From positions 32,001 through 96,000 of IMG/VR virus record IMGVR_UViG_3300029288_003518: a DNA stretch of 64,000 nt. One strand, written 5' to 3'. The DNA is from a virus (Duplodnaviria; Caudoviricetes). The notes under the pieces were generated by a model. It did not search any database and was not told the origin of the DNA. It worked only from the letters and a program-made list of their open reading frames with translations. The position numbers and the translations under genes are program-made. Positions 30,398-40,166 of the stretch are shown one piece after another. The stretch's first letter is position 1; every line of letters starts with the position of its first letter.

Positions 30398-30715
30398 TTA
30401 CGGGGCATAATATGCATAACCACTATTATTTAATTTCAGGCTGCTTCCGTGAGCCACATTATTGTCTACCTTAGTCATATCTAAACTACTGTTCGTAATC
30501 TTGATGGCGGGTATACTATAATCTACTATTTTGTCTCCAGTTATAGTATTAGCAATTATCTGGGAGACAGAAATATAACCATCCAATAAACTAAATGGAA
30601 TTTGTACTCCGTATGTCCCATTGTGGGTATGAGCATTAATGGCATCTTTAAAAGCATTCATTTTAGCTGACGCCAATCTCTCATAAACCGCGAAGGGTAC
30701 TGTATAAATCGACAT
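30398..30715 (-). CDS. Small fibre-like structural protein
   Basis: HTHNG (HxH) plus IxxxxITxxKI repeats typical of phage fibres. Confidence 0.6.
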   Translation of the reverse strand: MSIYTVPFAVYERLASAKMNAFKDAINAHTHNGTYGVQIPFSLLDGYISVSQIIANTITGDKIVDYSIPAIKITNSSLDMTKVDNNVAHGSSLKLNNSGYAYYAP

Positions 30716-31632: not shown

Positions 31633-32934
31633 TTATGCTCCTATAACTCCAGATGGATATGCTGAGTAGAAATAACCGGTATGTATTGGAAGATACCAAG
31701 AAAATCCAGATATCGTTGGATTCCACACTTCTACCGGATCACCCACCCAAAGATCGTCACTATCACCTATGCCTCCGCATTGCCATTTATCGTATATTCC
31801 ACTTGCCTTAGGATCCCATATATGAGGGAGAAAATCATACCCATTGGTCTTTTCGTCTACCCCATCCCAATAACTCTCATCACAAATTATGTTTCCAAAG
31901 AATATGGGATTATGATCATACACTTCATTAGCGTAATCCACAAGTTTGGTCCCTATGGCATGTCCTTCAGAATTAAGTAAATTACTTGGGTAACTTGGGT
32001 CCATAAGGTCACTTAGCTTCTCTATTGTAATGTCTGTCGCAGAGAGGCCTAGTTCTCTCGATATTCCATACTTCAATCCAAGATATGTTGAGTTAGCCGG
32101 ATTAGTATAGACATCTAATAGTCTGGATTTATAAGCATAATTTCTTTCCCCCTGTATTCTGGGAAGACCCAACATTAATCCGAATTCATCGAAACAGTTC
32201 CATATATTATAAATCTCTGGAGTAGATACTATTAAGTAAATGGTAGCAGAAACTGGTAAGCTAGTGGCTGCCTCGGTGTGTATGGTTAGGGCAGATATGA
32301 CCTCAATATAGTTAACCCCACTCGTGAGTGCCATATTGAAACTCCACGTAGCTCCACTTACATGGTTAGGATATGTAGCCTGTGACCATGGTCCTCCATT
32401 ATTCCTAATAAATATAAATAATCCAGATCCTTTTGTCCCAGTAATAACCTGCCAGAAACCATCAGCCGGAGATGTAACCGGATTAATCGTTGGGGGATAT
32501 GCTCCGAATAGGAACAGCACGAACATAAGACTATCAGACCAGTCCGAATATGTCCAACCATCTGTTGACCTTATCCGCGCATAGTATGTTCCCTCTTTCC
32601 CGAGAGTAAATTCAGGGGCAAGAGTATATTTTAGGTTATTACTTTGAAACTCGCTGGGATTTTTATCTATTGTTGCAAAGCTAGGGTCATTGAAGCTGAT
32701 CTGTATCTCATATAATAGTACATCACCATCCCCATAAGGTACTTCCCAAGAGAATGTTGGGTTTGTCCAGCTGAATGTTGGAGTACCATCAACTATATCC
32801 GGACCACCATCGACCATAAGATTCTCTGGTTTTGGCGGGGGATAGTTTAGACCATACTCCCATCCGGAATTATATTTATGTATTCCGTATTTAGAGGTGG
32901 ATACACTTAGGTATAACGGGTATGTTCTAGCCAT
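31633..32934 (-). CDS. Baseplate-associated protein with an FN3/Ig-like N-terminal part
   Basis: PTFSW...YEIQIS...YYARIRSTDG...SDWS is an FN3 pattern. FDEFGLMLGLPRIQGERN..YKSRL resembles the P2 gpI/wedge motif. Confidence 0.65.
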   Translation of the reverse strand: MARTYPLYLSVSTSKYGIHKYNSGWEYGLNYPPPKPENLMVDGGPDIVDGTPTFSWTNPTFSWEVPYGDGDVLLYEIQISFNDPSFATIDKNPSEFQSNNLKYTLAPEFTLGKEGTYYARIRSTDGWTYSDWSDSLMFVLFLFGAYPPTINPVTSPADGFWQVITGTKGSGLFIFIRNNGGPWSQATYPNHVSGATWSFNMALTSGVNYIEVISALTIHTEAATSLPVSATIYLIVSTPEIYNIWNCFDEFGLMLGLPRIQGERNYAYKSRLLDVYTNPANSTYLGLKYGISRELGLSATDITIEKLSDLMDPSYPSNLLNSEGHAIGTKLVDYANEVYDHNPIFFGNIICDESYWDGVDEKTNGYDFLPHIWDPKASGIYDKWQCGGIGDSDDLWVGDPVEVWNPTISGFSWYLPIHTGYFYSAYPSGVIGA

Positions 32935-34272
32935 TTACTTCTCTCCGTTTATTAGAATAGGCTTCCCTGTAGTCTTATATACTTTTATGTCGTCAGCCAG
33001 TTTCACTGTATTTTTTTTATACCATGTATTATACTTCTCTAATAGATATTCCATATCGAACACGGTGAACTTATCCCACGCATAGGGGAATAAAAGTGGA
33101 TGTTTCTTATCCGGAGATATCGTTTTGTCCTCATATCCGGTTCCGTCTAATGGAGTGAACGGGAGAAGGGCAGGGTTGACCCCAAGGTCAAGACACCGAG
33201 AGATGGATTCAATTGCATTCTCTTTTGTTTGCCCAGGATAGCCTATCATTATATAGCTTGTTATGTTCTTGAAATACTTCTTAGCTATCGTAATAGCATT
33301 GTTCCAGGCTCCAACAGACTTTTTTCCTCCCCAGAAAGAAAGCTCGCTATCATCACAGTTATCTAGAGGGAGAATCATCTCCCCAAATCCTATTTTAGCA
33401 CACTTTGACATTATTTCATCGGTGACGGATGATGGCTCAAGCCCACCGTATGAACTTACCGACAATCCGTAGTCTTTTGATATTATCTTATCAAATATAT
33501 CCGACAGATGGCCGCCCCAGTGGCTCAATAAATCACTATCCATGAACCTCAGTTTCTTATAGCCAGAGGCCACTACATAATCGATAAATTTTATTACCCC
33601 ATCAGTATCCTTAAGAACCACTTTATCTCCCTCGAGTGTTCTCACGAAACAGAAAAAACAATTATTCTTACATCCAAGTGAAGTAGTAACTCCTATCCTT
33701 CTGGGCCTATACGGAATAAGCGACAGATCTGTGTCCAATAGTTCGCATCCATCATCGTAGAATTTATTAAAACCACCAGGTATTTTAAATATCTTAGAAT
33801 ATTTTCCGGAGATCATCACCTCTCCCTTAAAACCACTGTTATGTATAATTTCTGATACCTCGACTATCCCCAATTCAGAATAATAAGAAGATGAACTTGA
33901 CACATCAGACTTAGAACCCATATCGCATATAATTATCTTGTCAAAGTTTTCGGAGGCCAACTCATTTGCTAGAACTGATTTTGGTAAACCCGATCTAATA
34001 ATCGGTTTAACTAATTTCTCTGACTGGAAGTTACCACATTCCTTCCATACCCCGGTATCACTAATCAATAAGTCATTATCGTATTTCATGTCTCCGTTGA
34101 TACTTGATACTCTGGTGTTCATCGCCAATTCAGGAGCCATATCTATAATCTTGACCTTATCTCCAGATAGTCTATATTTAGTGGCAAGATTATACATATA
34201 CATAGCATATTGATATGTATTGTGGAAGTTATAAAAAGTATACACTGGCGGATTAATAAATAGAATATTCAT
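32935..34272 (-). CDS. Cobalamin (B12)-binding-domain radical SAM protein (class B methyltransferase-like)
   Basis: N-terminal MNILFINPP...KVKIID (B12-domain start), TSLGCKNNCFFC (CxxxCxxC), RFMDSD, YIMIGYPGQT and FTPLDGT. Confidence 0.85.
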   Translation of the reverse strand: MNILFINPPVYTFYNFHNTYQYAMYMYNLATKYRLSGDKVKIIDMAPELAMNTRVSSINGDMKYDNDLLISDTGVWKECGNFQSEKLVKPIIRSGLPKSVLANELASENFDKIIICDMGSKSDVSSSSSYYSELGIVEVSEIIHNSGFKGEVMISGKYSKIFKIPGGFNKFYDDGCELLDTDLSLIPYRPRRIGVTTSLGCKNNCFFCFVRTLEGDKVVLKDTDGVIKFIDYVVASGYKKLRFMDSDLLSHWGGHLSDIFDKIISKDYGLSVSSYGGLEPSSVTDEIMSKCAKIGFGEMILPLDNCDDSELSFWGGKKSVGAWNNAITIAKKYFKNITSYIMIGYPGQTKENAIESISRCLDLGVNPALLPFTPLDGTGYEDKTISPDKKHPLLFPYAWDKFTVFDMEYLLEKYNTWYKKNTVKLADDIKVYKTTGKPILINGEK

Positions 34273-34283
34273 CTTTTCTCCTG

Positions 34284-34814
34284 TTAGTCAAAAGCCCAAC
34301 ATTGTGAACAACAATTCTCTTGGCAGGTACATGTGCACGTACAAGTACACTGGCACTGACACTCACACTCACAGCATAGAGTGTGTACGTGACTGTGCAG
34401 TGTTTCACAGGCAGACCTAAGTTCATCCATATGTGGTTTGCGGATAAGAGTACTGGTAGCTGTTATTCCCCCCGAAGGAAAACTAACATCTATAGGGAGT
34501 GTTGTAGTGGAAAATCCCTTGGCAGAATGTCCATGGTTATTGATTGCAGTAAGTGCAGATCGTAATTCGGTGATATGGGAAGGTTTGATTGTAGTAGTAG
34601 AAGTTATGGTTTCACCCCAAGCAACAGAAATACTAGGGTTGCCTGTAGTTATAACACCATCCACAATGTGGTAGTGGTTATTTTCTCCCTCGAGAAAAGC
34701 CCTAATTTCATCTATGTGCCTCTTTTTAACGGTAGTAACATTGGCAGATATAACCGTGTCAGTCCATGCGTTTGAAGGATTAGGTATTGATAGACTGGTT
34801 GTCCAGGTGGTCAT
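34284..34814 (-). CDS. 176-aa protein with three ~47-aa repeats and a C-terminal (Cys-X)n tail; putative radical SAM substrate / fibre-like protein
   Basis: Repeats K..H(I/M).E(I/L)R......H.H three times, then CCECECQCQCTCTCTCTCQENCCSQCWAFD (13 Cys in 26 aa). Lies between the two radical SAM genes. Confidence 0.85.
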   Translation of the reverse strand: MTTWTTSLSIPNPSNAWTDTVISANVTTVKKRHIDEIRAFLEGENNHYHIVDGVITTGNPSISVAWGETITSTTTIKPSHITELRSALTAINNHGHSAKGFSTTTLPIDVSFPSGGITATSTLIRKPHMDELRSACETLHSHVHTLCCECECQCQCTCTCTCTCQENCCSQCWAFD

Positions 34815-34828
34815 GTTTAACCTCTCTA

Positions 34829-36187
34829 TTATCTTTTGATACTACACTGATCCGTCTTAGGGATTTCATTAATACCAAAATACTGCTCAATATTAAAGAG
34901 CTTAGATTTTATGATCTTATTTTCTCTAATCAGTTCAACCAGACATCTGGAAACAAGTTCCTCAAAATCATCGCATATTTCCGTTCCATCGCCCAAGTTA
35001 ACTACTATCTTTTTATTGTCTTCCATAAATATAATCTCCCATTTCTGTAGCTCAATCTTCTTGTCCAGTAGCAGTTGAATAACTTTCTTTTTCAACATAT
35101 TAGTGATAGCTAAATTCATGGCACAGTAACCATTGGTTGGTCTTTGTCCGGATGGATTATTTAATGACAAGTTTGTGGCATAACATCTATTACACGTATA
35201 AACTTTGCAATGCTCGCATTCTTTGTCGGCTTCGGCATGCATATTTATTAGCTTTAACCAATTCTCACAATTATAGTCTATCCCACCAGTATGAACATTG
35301 CCTAGGTTATAATCGAATTTACTCTTATATGATACGAATCTATGGCAAGGATATAAATCTCCATCGACAGTAACTCCTAATAGCTTATGACCGGCCCTAC
35401 ATCCGTGCTGGGAATTAAAAACTCTATCACCCATCCTCAATAGGATCCCGTGAACCTGGTTGAAGTTCATCTTTTCATGTCCCGGGAATTCCATAAACCT
35501 ATCTATGCAATCACTTAACTCCTTACTATAAGTATCTATATTTTCTCTGCTCCAGTCACCTTCTACGATTGGAGTGAGGTTAGTTATAACCCCACCAGAT
35601 TCCAGTAGAGCAGTAAAGTCTTTGGATAGATTGCTGATATTACTAGGGACAACAGTCTGTCTAACAATAAGTTGTGGGAATATCTCCCTTAGTCTTTTTA
35701 CATTATTTATAACCGCGCTAAAACTTCCCAGTCCCGATCCGGCAAAGATCCTATTTTTATCGTGCGATTCCTCACAACCATCCATTGAAACTTGAAGTTG
35801 GAAATTAATCCCTCTCCATTTCTTTGCTTCCCTGAAGAACTTGCACATCTCTTCAGTTAACACTGTCCCATTTGTGAGTATATAAAGCCCAACTGTAATC
35901 CCTATCTCATTAAATTTTTCCTTACAATACTCCATTCCATACTTTACAATCGGAAAGTTTAAGAGCGGCTCCCCTCCGAAGAATGTAATGGAAATTTCTT
36001 GATCAGGCCTAGCCTTCTCGAGCCTATCTCGCTGCCCTATAAGCCAATCTATTGTCCTCTTCATTGTTTCGCGGGACATATCTCCAGTCCTCTCGCTTTC
36101 GTAGCAATAGGAACAGGCAAGATTACACCTATTTGTTACAAATATGTAAAGAGAGGTAAAGGTATCCCTAGAAATTTCTTCTTGCAT
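34829..36187 (-). CDS. Radical SAM/SPASM-domain protein (anSME/CteB-like peptide maturase type)
   Basis: TNRCNLACSYCY, TFFGGEPLL, ILTNGT, QVSMDG...HDKNR, and SPASM GCRAG...DGDLYPCHRF...CEHCKVYTCNRC...YC. Confidence 0.93.
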   Translation of the reverse strand: MQEEISRDTFTSLYIFVTNRCNLACSYCYESERTGDMSRETMKRTIDWLIGQRDRLEKARPDQEISITFFGGEPLLNFPIVKYGMEYCKEKFNEIGITVGLYILTNGTVLTEEMCKFFREAKKWRGINFQLQVSMDGCEESHDKNRIFAGSGLGSFSAVINNVKRLREIFPQLIVRQTVVPSNISNLSKDFTALLESGGVITNLTPIVEGDWSRENIDTYSKELSDCIDRFMEFPGHEKMNFNQVHGILLRMGDRVFNSQHGCRAGHKLLGVTVDGDLYPCHRFVSYKSKFDYNLGNVHTGGIDYNCENWLKLINMHAEADKECEHCKVYTCNRCYATNLSLNNPSGQRPTNGYCAMNLAITNMLKKKVIQLLLDKKIELQKWEIIFMEDNKKIVVNLGDGTEICDDFEELVSRCLVELIRENKIIKSKLFNIEQYFGINEIPKTDQCSIKR

Positions 36188-36198
36188 TAATCCTCCGA

Positions 36199-37563
36199 CT
36201 AGACTATACTAACTATCAACCCATTCTTAACTGTTATTGTTTTACCATTAGCACTAGTAAAACTACCATTTGCGCCGACGCTAGCTCCCGTCTTATAAGA
36301 AACAGCCTGTACTACATCAAAGTTACCGGAACCCAATGATACAGCAGCGGTACCGACAGATTGTGTTCCACTGGCTGTGGGTATAATATTGGCATCTATT
36401 GTATGGCCGGCCCTAGACCAAGGAAGATCGGTTAGGGTGCTATGGGATAATCCAGTCCCTCTGCCATATATATTAGTAAGATATACATTATCACTTCTCA
36501 ATGTCCCAAAATTACCCTCGCTAAAGGCTAGAGCTTGAGTCCCACAACTCCTAGTCCCGCTGGCTTCGGGTAAGAAGTTACCACTCGCAGTAACGTTCCC
36601 AAAAGCGTATATATCAGAGTTCAACTCAAATCTTGAGCTTCCATCCCGCCATCTCAAATATTTGTCAGTGATAATACTGTTATTATAGAAATATATAGAT
36701 TGATCTTTATCTGGCCCGGGATGATTCAGAAATATTGCAGCACCACTAGCAAATATATAGTTCCCGTAAACATTGCCTCCACGCAACTCTGTTCCAGCAT
36801 AAATGTTTCCAGGAATACTTATATCTTCTATTGGGATATCTGCCAAAGCCATACCGTGAGGATTTGTGCTACTTACAACCGCTGTACCCACGGCACTTAT
36901 ATGTTCCTGAACAGTATCAAAAGTCCCAGCTCCCGGAGGAAGGCACGATATAGCCGACGCATCATGAGCATCTACGGTGGCTCCAATGTGGGATATTAAA
37001 TTAGTATAATTACTTTCTAAGGTAGGTTTACCGACGGTAACCCAAGATGAACCCTTAATATCATCCATAAGAGCTCCAGACCTAACGGTATTGTCTACCA
37101 GCCTATTGCCATTGATACCACTTGCGGCAATTGCTGTATCTATACCATTAAGCCTTAATTGAATGGTATTGTATGGTCCCTGCGGATTCTCGCCAATGGT
37201 ATCCTCTATTATTACAACCTCATCCTGGAGAGAATTAACGTGCTCTGCCATAATATCATCACCGAGACTCTTATAAGTAGCGCCTGCAGCAGTACCAGAG
37301 TTTCCGGAATGAAAAGTCAGCTTACCGGTTACATAATCAACCATGTAATGTCCGGCAGAAGTTGGGGGAGTGAGAACCTCAGTCCACGCAGCTCCGCCAG
37401 AAGCACCAACTACAGTTGAGGCCGAATCCTTAGGGACATGATCGAGATATATAGTATATGGGCTAACTGCGGGAACATTAAAATACTCAGGCCCGACAGC
37501 ATACCCTGATGCATTTTTATCTATCTTGAGAGTGAATGTTTTAGTGGTTAACGGGTAAGCCAT
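36199..37563 (-). CDS. Tail fibre/baseplate-associated structural protein
   Basis: AHDASAIS, NPHG and LP..SGT.S.G motifs, and a C-terminal GKTITVKNGLIVSI typical of phage fibres. Confidence 0.7.
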   Translation of the reverse strand: MAYPLTTKTFTLKIDKNASGYAVGPEYFNVPAVSPYTIYLDHVPKDSASTVVGASGGAAWTEVLTPPTSAGHYMVDYVTGKLTFHSGNSGTAAGATYKSLGDDIMAEHVNSLQDEVVIIEDTIGENPQGPYNTIQLRLNGIDTAIAASGINGNRLVDNTVRSGALMDDIKGSSWVTVGKPTLESNYTNLISHIGATVDAHDASAISCLPPGAGTFDTVQEHISAVGTAVVSSTNPHGMALADIPIEDISIPGNIYAGTELRGGNVYGNYIFASGAAIFLNHPGPDKDQSIYFYNNSIITDKYLRWRDGSSRFELNSDIYAFGNVTASGNFLPEASGTRSCGTQALAFSEGNFGTLRSDNVYLTNIYGRGTGLSHSTLTDLPWSRAGHTIDANIIPTASGTQSVGTAAVSLGSGNFDVVQAVSYKTGASVGANGSFTSANGKTITVKNGLIVSIV

Positions 37564-37586: not shown

Positions 37587-37615
37587 ATTATATCACATAA
37601 TTGTATATATTTCAA
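37587..37615 (-). promoter_or_regulatory. Internal sigma70-like promoter, TTGAAA-N17-TATAAT with extended -10
   Basis: Minus strand reads ttgaaa tatatacaattatgtga tataat, then a GAGGAGG RBS before 37563. It lies upstream of the radical SAM triad. Confidence 0.78.
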
Positions 37616-38608: not shown

Positions 38609-39742
38609 CTATAGTACCCTAATCGCTTCAGCAATGCTTGTATCTGGGTAAAACATTTCATCCCAATATATTTCGACATTTCCCATGAAGGTGGGTTCTT
38701 GCCTAAAGTAATAACAATTGATAACGTGATCTGAGATCTTTGTACTTACATCCATTATCTGTTGCCTAAGTTCATTAAGGATAAAGGTCCCACCTATGGG
38801 TATATTTACAATATACTTTTCTATTGCTGTCTTAATTTTGCCGCGGATAGTATCCTTATCGGTATCGGATGTATTATCCACAAATATTATTCTGACTTCA
38901 ATTTCAACCGGTACAATCCCGGGCTTTATTGCCGTCCCAGTTATTCCTAAAGCCTGGACAGAGTTAATAGCCGACTGGACATCCGATAACATTTTATCAG
39001 TGGCCAAACCTTCTACCGGTATAACTATCATATCGTAGCTTCCTATTCCTCTAGCATACGGTCTTATTATAACATCTGCAATTCCGGTAACAGATAGGGC
39101 CGCAAGCCTAATAGCCGTTTCATTTGCTTTCTCTGCCGAAAGACTAGCGTTGATGATCCTATACCTAAAGTTAGCGTCTGCTTCTGTATCCGATCCTCCG
39201 ATGATAACTTTCTCATTAGTAGTAAATACATCGCTTATTCCCAGGCTATGTTTAGTTAATGTATTAACTCCCACATTAGAATTACTTCCAGAAGTAGATG
39301 CTTCTAATGGAACATATACCTGAGTATCGGCTATACCAAATGCGGTATCGGAAGATACCGTAAATACTATTGAACCATCGTCGGTACTTATCTGGGTGCC
39401 CTGTGGGATAATATCAGTTGGTATCCTACTATGGAGAGTCCCGGAAGCAACATATATTATCTGAGTTGTATCTCCAGATGAGGTTGTAGCCTTTGTAGGA
39501 GTTAATCTCTTCATACTGAATAAATCTCCTATCAAATCCAAGAAATATCCCTCTGCAGTTGATACGAATCCCATAGCAGTATTTATATCTAGTATATCAT
39601 AATACTCGGATAGGTTTAAATTAATAACCTCTATTAACGAACGAGCAATACCCCCAACGGTTTGATTGGTGATATTTGACCTCGTAACCAAATGTTGTAA
39701 TGACTTTTTAACTAACGATCCATAGTCTTTTCTAAATATCAT
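38609..39742 (-). CDS. Baseplate J-like wedge protein
   Basis: TAEGYFLDLIG...R, IPQGTQIST, GGSDTEADANFRYRI and ALSVTGIADV. Confidence 0.92.
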   Translation of the reverse strand: MIFRKDYGSLVKKSLQHLVTRSNITNQTVGGIARSLIEVINLNLSEYYDILDINTAMGFVSTAEGYFLDLIGDLFSMKRLTPTKATTSSGDTTQIIYVASGTLHSRIPTDIIPQGTQISTDDGSIVFTVSSDTAFGIADTQVYVPLEASTSGSNSNVGVNTLTKHSLGISDVFTTNEKVIIGGSDTEADANFRYRIINASLSAEKANETAIRLAALSVTGIADVIIRPYARGIGSYDMIVIPVEGLATDKMLSDVQSAINSVQALGITGTAIKPGIVPVEIEVRIIFVDNTSDTDKDTIRGKIKTAIEKYIVNIPIGGTFILNELRQQIMDVSTKISDHVINCYYFRQEPTFMGNVEIYWDEMFYPDTSIAEAIRVL

Positions 39743-39755
39743 TTTAGTCTCCTTA

Positions 39756-40166
39756 CTAGTATGATAGTATCCCGCTGTTTAAATCAAACGTCATATCTGG
39801 GGTAACATTTAAAACTGCCATTCCATCCCTCACAAAAACATAATAAACAAGACTATAGAGTGATATGGGCACAGCCTTAACCATTAAGTCTATACCGGCT
39901 ACTCTGCCATCTTTTGTGAGAGAGTAAACTATTTTCTCTTCACCCCTTTGGGCAGTTATCCTTGTATTTTGTTCACCAATTATCGAAGAAAGATCCGCTC
40001 CAATGTCTGGATGAGGTCCAAAATCATTAAAATCAGTTCTTAACCTAAATGAAATATCCTGTTTCAATACTCCGGATGGATCTGCCAGATCGAAATCTCC
40101 GTTGGCTGCAACAGTCAAATCTCCGCTTGGTGAAACTTTTATGTCAATTTCAGAATAAGTTATCAT
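39756..40166 (-). CDS. gp25/GPW-like baseplate wedge (sheath initiator)
   Basis: GDL....GDF...LKQDISFRLRT...HPDIGADL..IIG; canonical position before baseplate J. Confidence 0.8.
   Translation of the reverse strand: MITYSEIDIKVSPSGDLTVAANGDFDLADPSGVLKQDISFRLRTDFNDFGPHPDIGADLSSIIGEQNTRITAQRGEEKIVYSLTKDGRVAGIDLMVKAVPISLYSLVYYVFVRDGMAVLNVTPDMTFDLNSGILSY

Follow-up and report, generated by a model that had tools for sequence, protein, structure and literature searches.

To our knowledge, nearly all that is known of the thioether chemistry of radical S-adenosylmethionine (SAM)/SPASM enzymes comes from small secreted peptides. Not until 2026 was it demonstrated by experiment on an entire protein, in a methanogen (PMC13692751): the SPASM enzyme CrpC of Methanococcus voltae installs ranthionine cross-links on the entire Cys-rich protein CrpA, and contacts with the N-terminal domain aid binding. 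Known ranthionine acceptors are Thr, Asp and Glu, with the Cys sulfur linked to the beta or gamma carbon (PMC10114670), and Gln in the C-x-x-Q/D motifs of CrpA and CrpB has been termed suggestive of thioether formation (PMC13692751). Here we describe a three-gene phage cassette within a stretch of 64,000 nucleotides (nt), referred to below as the window, which covers positions 32,001 to 96,000 of the IMG/VR virus record IMGVR_UViG_3300029288_003518 (Caudoviricetes). In this cassette a SPASM enzyme and a second radical SAM enzyme (rSAM2) flank a protein of 176 amino acids (aa) that ends in a ladder of alternating Cys residues and is called here the ladder protein. Our preferred reading, to which we give a probability of roughly 0.55, is that the ladder protein is a protein-sized, ranthipeptide-type substrate of the cassette which stays on the tip of the tail fibre. 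The conserved trio suggests that peptide-antibiotic chemistry is used on a part of a virus.

The cassette contains the following genes and parts.
34829..36187, minus strand: radical SAM/SPASM enzyme, 452 aa, with Pfam Radical_SAM and SPASM above cut-off and the cluster motif C21-x3-C25-x2-C28
34832-35155, minus strand: conserved C-terminal extension of the SPASM enzyme, residues 345-452
34284..34814, minus strand: gene of the ladder protein, 176 aa, three beta-alpha repeats each closing with H-x-H, then a Cys-rich tail
34668..34775, minus strand: repeat 1, residues 14-49, a W-T-D...T-x-V-K-x-x-H-I-x-E-I-R helix followed by H47-x-H49
34527..34634, minus strand: repeat 2, residues 61-96, closing with H94-x-H96
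34383..34490, minus strand: repeat 3, residues 109-144, closing with H142-x-H144, and the site of a weak Pfam YmaF match
34299..34376, minus strand: Cys-rich tail, residues 147-172
34323-34373, minus strand: strict C-X ladder, residues 148-164
32935..34272, minus strand: rSAM2, 445 aa, an N-terminal Rossmann-like half followed by G-C201-x3-C205-x2-C208

The Crp pair resembles this locus in that a SPASM gene adjoins the gene of a protein-sized substrate, whose N-terminal part is folded and whose C-terminal part has periodic Cys. However, CrpC belongs to TIGR04463 and has an N-terminal recognition element (RRE) of the kind found with peptides that are ribosomally made and then modified post-translationally (RiPPs), which the window enzyme lacks; CrpA consists of ten 17-residue repeats with C-x-x-Q/D, with no C-X ladder and no H-x-H repeats; and the system, which is archaeal and not viral, lacks a second class-B-like enzyme. 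PapB/PapA (freyrasin) and CteB/CteA (SCIFF, thermocellin) provide the best family and structure matches of the window enzyme, and their acceptors Asp, Glu and Thr resemble the residues of the ladder, but PapA and CteA are short peptides (~45-50 aa) that carry either a C-x3-D motif or six Cys in scattered positions, their products are released, and the window enzyme lacks the N-terminal RRE of CteB. In the quinohemoprotein amine dehydrogenase system (QhpD/QhpC), a SPASM enzyme makes Cys-to-Asp/Glu thioethers within a protein and the polypeptide stays in a larger assembly, but QhpC is an enzyme subunit with four Cys, no ladder and no phage context. The CXXX-repeat system (TIGR04115 maturase, PF27846 target) shares the use of periodic Cys as a radical SAM target, and phage CXXX tails adjoin related SPASM genes, but the Cys period is 4 there and 2 in the ladder protein, which does not have the CXXX target pattern. 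A nearby ESM Atlas cluster carries PF27846 in 19% of its members, which we take as a lead only, and a search of the literature found no published function for the CXXX-repeat system.

For the histidines, the closest known structure is the apex of the P2 gpV spike, where three H-x-H motifs form an octahedral Fe cage (bioRxiv 10.1101/2023.02.25.529910). The ladder protein, also a product of a phage tail region, likewise has three H-x-H motifs with three-fold (here pseudo-three-fold) symmetry, but the cages of P2 gpV and of tail fibres lie between chains in beta-structured trimers, whereas the motifs of the ladder protein follow three helices of one chain and its metal is a prediction. Searches of the literature on phages together with ranthipeptides, tail-linked SPASM enzymes or CXXX repeats found no account of such a phage system.

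A preliminary description of this stretch, made from its letters, had pointed to three H-x-E-(L/I)-R...H-x-H repeats followed by a strictly alternating Cys ladder, and both features were recovered: the quoted segments lie at residues 27-49, 74-96 and 122-144, and nine Cys alternate along residues 148-164. The repeat unit is ~36-40 residues long, with a W-T-D-like start, the motif T-x-(V/I)-(K/R)-x-x-H-x-x-E-(L/I)-R and an H-x-H ~13 residues further on. The similarity among repeats is significant, with pairwise local alignment scores of 61-88 against shuffle means of 18-22 (z 9.4-14.1; observed scores reached in 0 of 2000 shuffles). The tail begins two residues past the third H-x-H with C147, followed by the nine alternating Cys (148, 150 ... 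164), which are separated by E, E, Q, Q, T, T, T and T. After the ladder the protein closes with Q-E-N-C-C-S-Q-C-W-A-F-D (a C-C-x-x-C-W-x-F-D end), and 13 Cys fall within the last 30 residues.

To examine conservation, we collected homologues of the ladder protein by a word-indexed search (19 proteins of 176-192 aa) and by a profile search of 1.84 billion representatives (~30 full-length clusters). In an alignment of 20 sequences with 26-95% identity (A1), all six His of the H-x-H motifs (H47, H49, H94, H96, H142 and H144), which had been singled out earlier as a notable feature, are invariant, as are the E-L-R core and the tail positions C148, E151, C152, C154, C156, C158, C160, C164 and C168. 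We then inspected 42 members (33 from the searches, 8 encoded in the loci and the window protein itself), and every one of them has three separated H-x-H motifs and a Cys-rich tail with 6-16 Cys. The tail is thus not the unconserved low-complexity sequence that would have spoken against the preliminary description. Among the 305 residues flanked by two Cys in these members, Thr (162), Glu (59) and Gln (34) together account for 84%. Ladder length is variable, close relatives differing by whole C-T units (L001 vs L002/L015), and a few members (P0020, P0022 and P0024) show relaxed alternation with the Cys count retained. Judged from these alignments, the Cys ladder is a conserved, selected feature. 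One other origin, that the ladder is a DNA simple repeat made by slippage, was considered and rejected on codon diversity together with protein-level conservation. The four Thr of the ladder use four codons (ACT, ACG, ACA and ACC) and Tandem Repeats Finder reported only a weak 6-nt array in the ladder DNA (4.5 copies, score 33), which argues that the ladder is maintained at the protein level.

The gene of the ladder protein is spaced 14 nt from the SPASM gene and 11 nt from rSAM2, all on one strand. A scan of IMG/VR yielded 12 loci with the ladder protein and a scan of one genome for each species yielded 4, and two more (L018 and L025) were added by a scan based on rSAM2. The trio of ladder protein, SPASM enzyme and rSAM2 was found in 13 of the 13 related loci whose DNA reaches far enough, in addition to the window. 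Its gene order is SPASM-ladder protein-rSAM2 in the window and ladder protein-SPASM-rSAM2 in a second type of locus (L001-type); in a 133-kb phage (L025), the ladder protein is followed by two genes, SPASM, one gene and rSAM2, and then by two more radical SAM genes. Because the trio is present in every long-enough locus and in three orders, with a sharply bounded SPASM subfamily and a rare rSAM2 that is homologous across contexts, it shows the pattern of a co-inherited functional unit. As the preliminary description had assumed, the ladder protein is very probably a substrate of the adjacent SPASM maturase, given a trio that is conserved in three orders and lies in the tail module where one can be identified. 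The cluster of the 133-kb phage (L025:1794-9321) comprises the gene of a Cys-ladder substrate, one resembling aldo/keto-reductase genes, a fragment of DegT type, SPASM, a 235-aa gene, rSAM2 and two further radical SAM genes of ~331 aa.

To investigate the possible reaction of the SPASM enzyme, we compared it with known families. Pfam Radical_SAM (59.2 bits) and SPASM (23.2 bits) both match over cut-off, and the CX3CX2C motif (C21/C25/C28) is invariant, which places the protein among radical SAM/SPASM enzymes; the SPASM cysteines C263, C281 (G276-x4-C281), C324-x2-C327-x4-C332-x2-C335 and C355 are invariant in a further alignment (A5). The best NCBIfam match is PapB (NF047865), at 215 bits against a cut-off of 340 and over profile positions 3-324 of 330. 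Scores also stay under the cut-offs for the QhpD family (146 bits vs 453), the CXXX-repeat maturase TIGR04115 (138.6 vs 350), the SCIFF maturase TIGR03974 of the CteB type (136.3 vs 425) and TIGR04463 of the CrpC type (71.8 vs 525), as they do for the other top matches, Nif11-type and CcpM maturases. The best solved relative is CteB (5wgg, E 1.2e-31), aligned over CteB residues 96-421. These matches suggest that the enzyme is PapB/CteB-like. Its subfamily is sharply bounded, with ~22 clusters at >=269 bits and the next match at 146 bits.

Consistent with an earlier remark, no RRE is present at the N-terminus of this enzyme: the alignment with CteB starts at residue 96, past the N-terminal RRE of CteB, and ~10 residues precede the cluster motif, whereas SCIFF maturases have ~90 more (alignment A2). 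In place of the N-terminal RRE of SCIFF maturases, the subfamily has a conserved C-terminal extension of ~100 residues. When modelled alone from 19 sequences, the extension folds into a helix, three short strands and one long helix with a predicted local distance difference test score (pLDDT) of 85. The idea that it adopts an RRE/PqqD-like fold found no support, as neither Foldseek (nothing under E 0.001) nor VIA-align (best Z 3.7, to unrelated chains) returned an RRE or PqqD match. It is possible that the extension is a novel docking domain. In another locus (L081), a three-repeat substrate has a more distant SPASM enzyme at its side, and this enzyme lacks the extension.

The rSAM2 protein matches Pfam Radical_SAM at 40.2 bits, which identifies the radical SAM core. 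NCBIfam B12-binding radical SAM families match at 37-39 bits, far under their cut-offs, along with weak MiaB-type matches. The Pfam scan gave no PF02310 (B12-binding) match for rSAM2, and a distant homologue (P0292) carries that domain. Judged by its domain order, the layout of rSAM2 is class-B-like, an architecture for which methylation is the commonest chemistry. The protein is rare, with seven word-index matches, and the copy in the window is 30% identical (E 7e-52) to the rSAM2 of cassettes in Omnitrophota phages. The second radical SAM enzyme of L081-type loci shows no homology to rSAM2, which argues that rSAM2 is specific to the family with H-x-H motifs and C-X ladder.

We next considered the fold of the ladder protein. 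An AlphaFold2 model built with A1 has a mean pLDDT of 72.8 and a predicted template modelling score (pTM) of 0.73, with one helix per repeat (residues 31-44, 78-92 and 126-140) and blocks within the repeats that reach pLDDT 85-91. Foldseek searches of the model against PDB and BFVD gave nothing under E 0.9. Exhaustive VIA-align comparison matched a designed helical filament (Z 7.3), a single-chain helix bundle (Z 7.2) and the BARA domains of Vps30/Beclin 1 (Z 6.4, root-mean-square deviation 3.8 Å over 119 residues; Z 5.6, 4.0 Å over 123 residues), values which are within the range usual for helical repeats and serve as a description of architecture only. The BARA domain likewise consists of three beta-sheet/alpha-helix repeats with pseudo-threefold packing, but it has 5-10% sequence identity with the ladder protein and no functional link, and is a fold analogue only. 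The suggestion that the repeats are three separate leader or recognition elements for the maturase does not fit this model, which packs them into one compact domain with analogues such as BARA.

The model also bears on the possibility that the protein is a homotrimeric fibre or needle, in which three chains would surround a real three-fold axis, the H-x-H motifs would build metal cages between chains, and three Cys ladders would form the tip. Known H-x-H cages of phage spikes and fibres are indeed inter-chain, the gene occupies a fibre slot, and many relatives of the repeat have only two C-terminal copies, which could not close a three-fold domain by themselves. Nevertheless, one chain already provides three H-x-H motifs and is predicted to be compact, and the exact three-repeat layout is kept in 42/42 members; we therefore regard the homotrimer as unlikely. 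Since the three repeats pack into one compact domain, a homotrimer is not needed to gather the three H-x-H motifs, and the predicted structure reads as a single-chain pseudo-trimer for which trimerization is not necessarily required. The three symmetry-related H-x-H motifs expected of a histidine cage are present, one per repeat, but within a single chain. As three H-x-H motifs around a three-fold axis are the ligand set of the P2 cage, a single-chain cage is the most economical reading of the six invariant His; we consider it an even chance that these histidines form a metal cage.

Proteins related to the repeats occur in other settings. In the ESM Atlas, phage and bacterial proteins with many Ig-like/FN3 domains contain the fold of the ladder protein (residues 1-139) as one of their domains, and in the profile search many larger proteins carry, at the extreme C-terminus, the repeat without H-x-H in two tandem copies, with Pfam partners that include cohesin, subtilase (S8) and FG-GAP. 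PHROG scans of these larger proteins gave no tail annotation. Considering this and the cohesin/subtilase/FG-GAP partners, the repeat domain alone is no proof of a phage fibre. Other small proteins join three such repeats to different Cys/His-rich tails, among them a 241-aa phage protein that is homologous to A1 (hhalign probability 97.9%), and a 92-aa relative (P0121) has a single repeat before a long C-T/C-Q ladder. From these comparisons, the three-repeat unit is a reusable carrier domain, and it is the H-x-H triplet, the strict C-X ladder and rSAM2 that jointly mark the present family. As a separate observation, a W-T-D...T-x-I-K-x-x-H-I-x-E-L-R double repeat ends hundreds of otherwise unrelated large proteins (e.g., P0035, P0037, P0071, P0132 and P0144); no Pfam family covers this double repeat, which looks like a C-terminal module that has not been named.

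The position of the cassette provides the evidence for a role in the virion. The record from which the window is taken is a 113.8-kb IMG/VR virus rated 55% complete, and the cassette lies inside a long minus-strand structural operon of the myovirus baseplate/fibre type, where its neighbours are as follows.
39756-40166: neighbour of the baseplate wedge gene, matching baseplate phrog_975 and phrog_120
38609..39742, minus strand: baseplate wedge subunit (gp6/J-like), phrog_6, E 3e-42
36199..37563, minus strand: 454-aa protein directly upstream of the cassette, probably fibre-type as a lead only, its nearest named ESM Atlas clusters being phage tail-fibre families with scores <=0.85
31633..32934, minus strand: virion structural protein directly downstream of the cassette, phrog_21059, E 1e-31

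A gp25-like baseplate protein and a virion structural protein are also located upstream in the direction of transcription, and further virion structural proteins downstream. The 454-aa protein had no Pfam or PHROG match. No composition break was found around the cassette, and scans for promoters and terminators stayed at the level of shuffled sequence. The strongest sigma-70-like match of the region (37587-37615, minus strand; 11/12, extended -10 TG) lies in the 52-nt gap upstream of the 454-aa gene, and could be the start of a transcription unit that includes the cassette.

In the L001-type loci, some of which are prophages in Omnitrophota genomes, including the chromosome of Velamenicoccus archaeovorus LiM, the genes that precede the cassette encode the tape measure, minor tail proteins and then a 1207-aa central fibre J (phrog_31, E 4e-165), with two small genes between J and the cassette. 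The predicted fibre-type protein upstream of the cassette has 190 aa in these loci, against 454 aa in the window. The slot behind J in lambdoid phages houses side fibre and fibre-assembly genes. The cassette thus comes directly after tail genes in both contexts in which tail genes can be identified, the window and the J-type tail tip of Omnitrophota (pro)phages, and two unrelated tail architectures put the trio directly after predicted fibre-type genes. Among the neighbours of the cassette that were scanned in the three genomic contexts, we found no family of peptidases or transporters, so that the leader protease or exporter expected of a classical RiPP locus is missing from them. That the ladder protein is a virion part appears, from this gene position, evenly balanced.

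Taken together, a reasonable model is that residues 1-146 form a single compact domain in which three beta-alpha repeats surround a pseudo-threefold axis, and that the six His, located together at one end of this bundle of helices, probably build a one-chain counterpart to the octahedral histidine metal cage of trimeric spikes and fibres. The Cys-rich tail would leave the domain near this axis, because it starts two residues after the third H-x-H. The SPASM enzyme would then link the sulfur of Cys to carbon atoms in the side chains of the Thr, Glu or Gln residues that lie between the cysteines, most probably as ranthionine-type thioethers, and the ladder supplies one of these three residues at every second position; we think thioether chemistry on the ladder rather more probable than not, given the families that the enzyme resembles. 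Cross-linking may make a rod or knot, rigid and covalently stapled, out of a tail that is otherwise floppy and prone to oxidation, and rSAM2 would add a further modification. The modified protein would probably stay whole and cap or decorate the tail fibre: that the product remains intact on the fibre tip is suggested because no protease or exporter accompanies the cassette and because the cassette is embedded among tail genes where these are identifiable. A wider and more tentative proposal is that a fibre-tip module unlike any known virion part is made by phages with two or more unrelated types of tail. It would consist of a single-chain His cage and a cysteine ladder that emerges from its axis, which two radical SAM enzymes would staple and modify further into a rigid, redox-inert thioether rod for host contact, and RiPP chemistry may then be a routine step of virion assembly in phages that infect anaerobes.

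A different fate of the product was also considered, in which the 146-residue three-repeat domain is a large leader and the ladder of ~30 residues is a core which, once cross-linked, is cut off by a host protease and serves as a toxin, a signal or a peptide that binds metal in the course of infection or lysogeny. An N-terminal recognition part, a C-terminal Cys-rich core and an adjacent SPASM maturase are the standard RiPP layout, large leaders occur in NHLP/Nif11-type precursors, the 92-aa relative with a single repeat resembles a leader plus core, and carriage by Omnitrophota prophages would suit a product that benefits the lysogen. On the other hand, the scanned neighbours in three contexts include no protease or exporter (a host protease is possible), and the cassette sits within late structural operons with tiny gaps. 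In addition, the ladder starts two residues past an H-x-H that is invariant and confidently folded, and there is neither a linker nor a conserved cleavage motif; the same fold is also a terminal domain of large surface proteins. A released peptide is thus improbable in our view.

Since C-X-C, CC and H-x-H are classic metal ligand motifs, radical SAM enzymes require Fe-S clusters, and members with relaxed alternation still keep their Cys count, the protein might instead bind metal-thiolate or iron-sulfur centres like a metallothionein, with the His sites as additional metal ligands, with no covalent change and with radical SAM enzymes that act elsewhere or draw Fe and S from it, but this is quite improbable, because the protein is strictly co-inherited with a SPASM enzyme of maturase type, all relatives of which have peptides or proteins that contain Cys as their targets, metal binding alone does not account for the Thr/Glu/Gln bias between cysteines, and many other phage SPASM genes adjoin other Cys-periodic tails.

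Several points weigh against the ladder protein as a thioether-stapled part of the fibre tip. Metal binding, thioether chemistry and location in the virion are all steps which we infer, the direct observations being the sequence features, conservation, gene linkage and predicted fold. The reaction type of the SPASM enzyme is proposed from relatives at about 25-30% identity, with every named family below cut-off, and the argument for a virion part is one of gene position only. The cluster in the 133-kb phage also has sugar-type and redox genes, which would fit a small-molecule-like product too. In the AlphaFold2 model, residues 150-176 have pLDDT <50 and the tail is disordered; the proposed gathering of six His at the same end of the helix bundle is an argument from symmetry. 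Homologous three-repeat domains also exist without H-x-H, indicating that the histidines are dispensable for the fold. Finally, no PHROG, Pfam or NCBIfam family matches the ladder protein above cut-off, and tblastn against deposited phage genomes gave no match.

If the preferred reading of a stapled fibre-tip protein is true, a cassette in the tail-fibre slot extends SPASM chemistry to virus particles and adds a new post-translational step to phage assembly. The ladder protein would also offer a compact model for acceptor choice by the enzyme, with 176 aa, a well-folded carrier and a 17-residue ladder in which Thr, Glu or Gln are the only acceptors. What the histidine cage does in phage spikes and fibres is still debated, and metal binding, if it occurs, would make a single chain with three-fold H-x-H motifs a histidine cage in minimal form. 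Prophage carriage in Velamenicoccus archaeovorus LiM supplies a named host genome in which the product can be sought.

Some minor features of the ladder protein and the window are as follows. The YmaF family (PF12788) matches residues 116-153 at 22.8 bits, under the gathering score of 27, and one homologue (P0013) has a precomputed YmaF match. Searches with the A1 profile found no relative in metagenome contigs, no match among PDB sequences and no second repeat-bearing protein among all open reading frames (ORFs) of the window; the genome has a single copy. A P-S-G tripeptide (within F-P-S-G-G; residues 112-114, 34473-34481, minus strand) is not kept in homologues. A 105-aa ORF among the fibre genes (30398-30715, minus strand) does not match the A1 profile; it has an N-terminal helix followed by H-T-H (K-D-A-I-N-A-H-T-H-N-G) and may hold a separate H-x-H element.

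The cassette belongs to a wider class. A scan for the SPASM subfamily gave 182 phage stretches encoding more distant SPASM enzymes, many of whose genes directly adjoin proteins of 170-335 aa with other Cys-periodic C-terminal tails, namely CXXX repeats, C-T-C-N-C-N-Y heptads and F-C-P-C-N-C-N repeats. These proteins have no Pfam or NCBIfam family. Within this class of phage SPASM genes with Cys-repeat proteins, the window system is a distinct variant, with an H-x-H pseudo-trimer carrier, a period-2 ladder and a rare second enzyme. Two further arrangements were observed in the scan. Phage proteins of 138-382 aa ending in CXXX-type (C-Q-x-x-C-Q) repeats directly follow a SPASM gene (L062:6366-6965, L085:6296-7120, L105-L111, L115 and L120) and have a sub-threshold SCIFF match only. 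In an IMG/VR phage contig (L123:7690-10254; also L125, L127 and L116), four tandem paralogues of 190-237 aa, ending in C-T-C-N-C-N-Y heptads, lie just downstream of SPASM genes.

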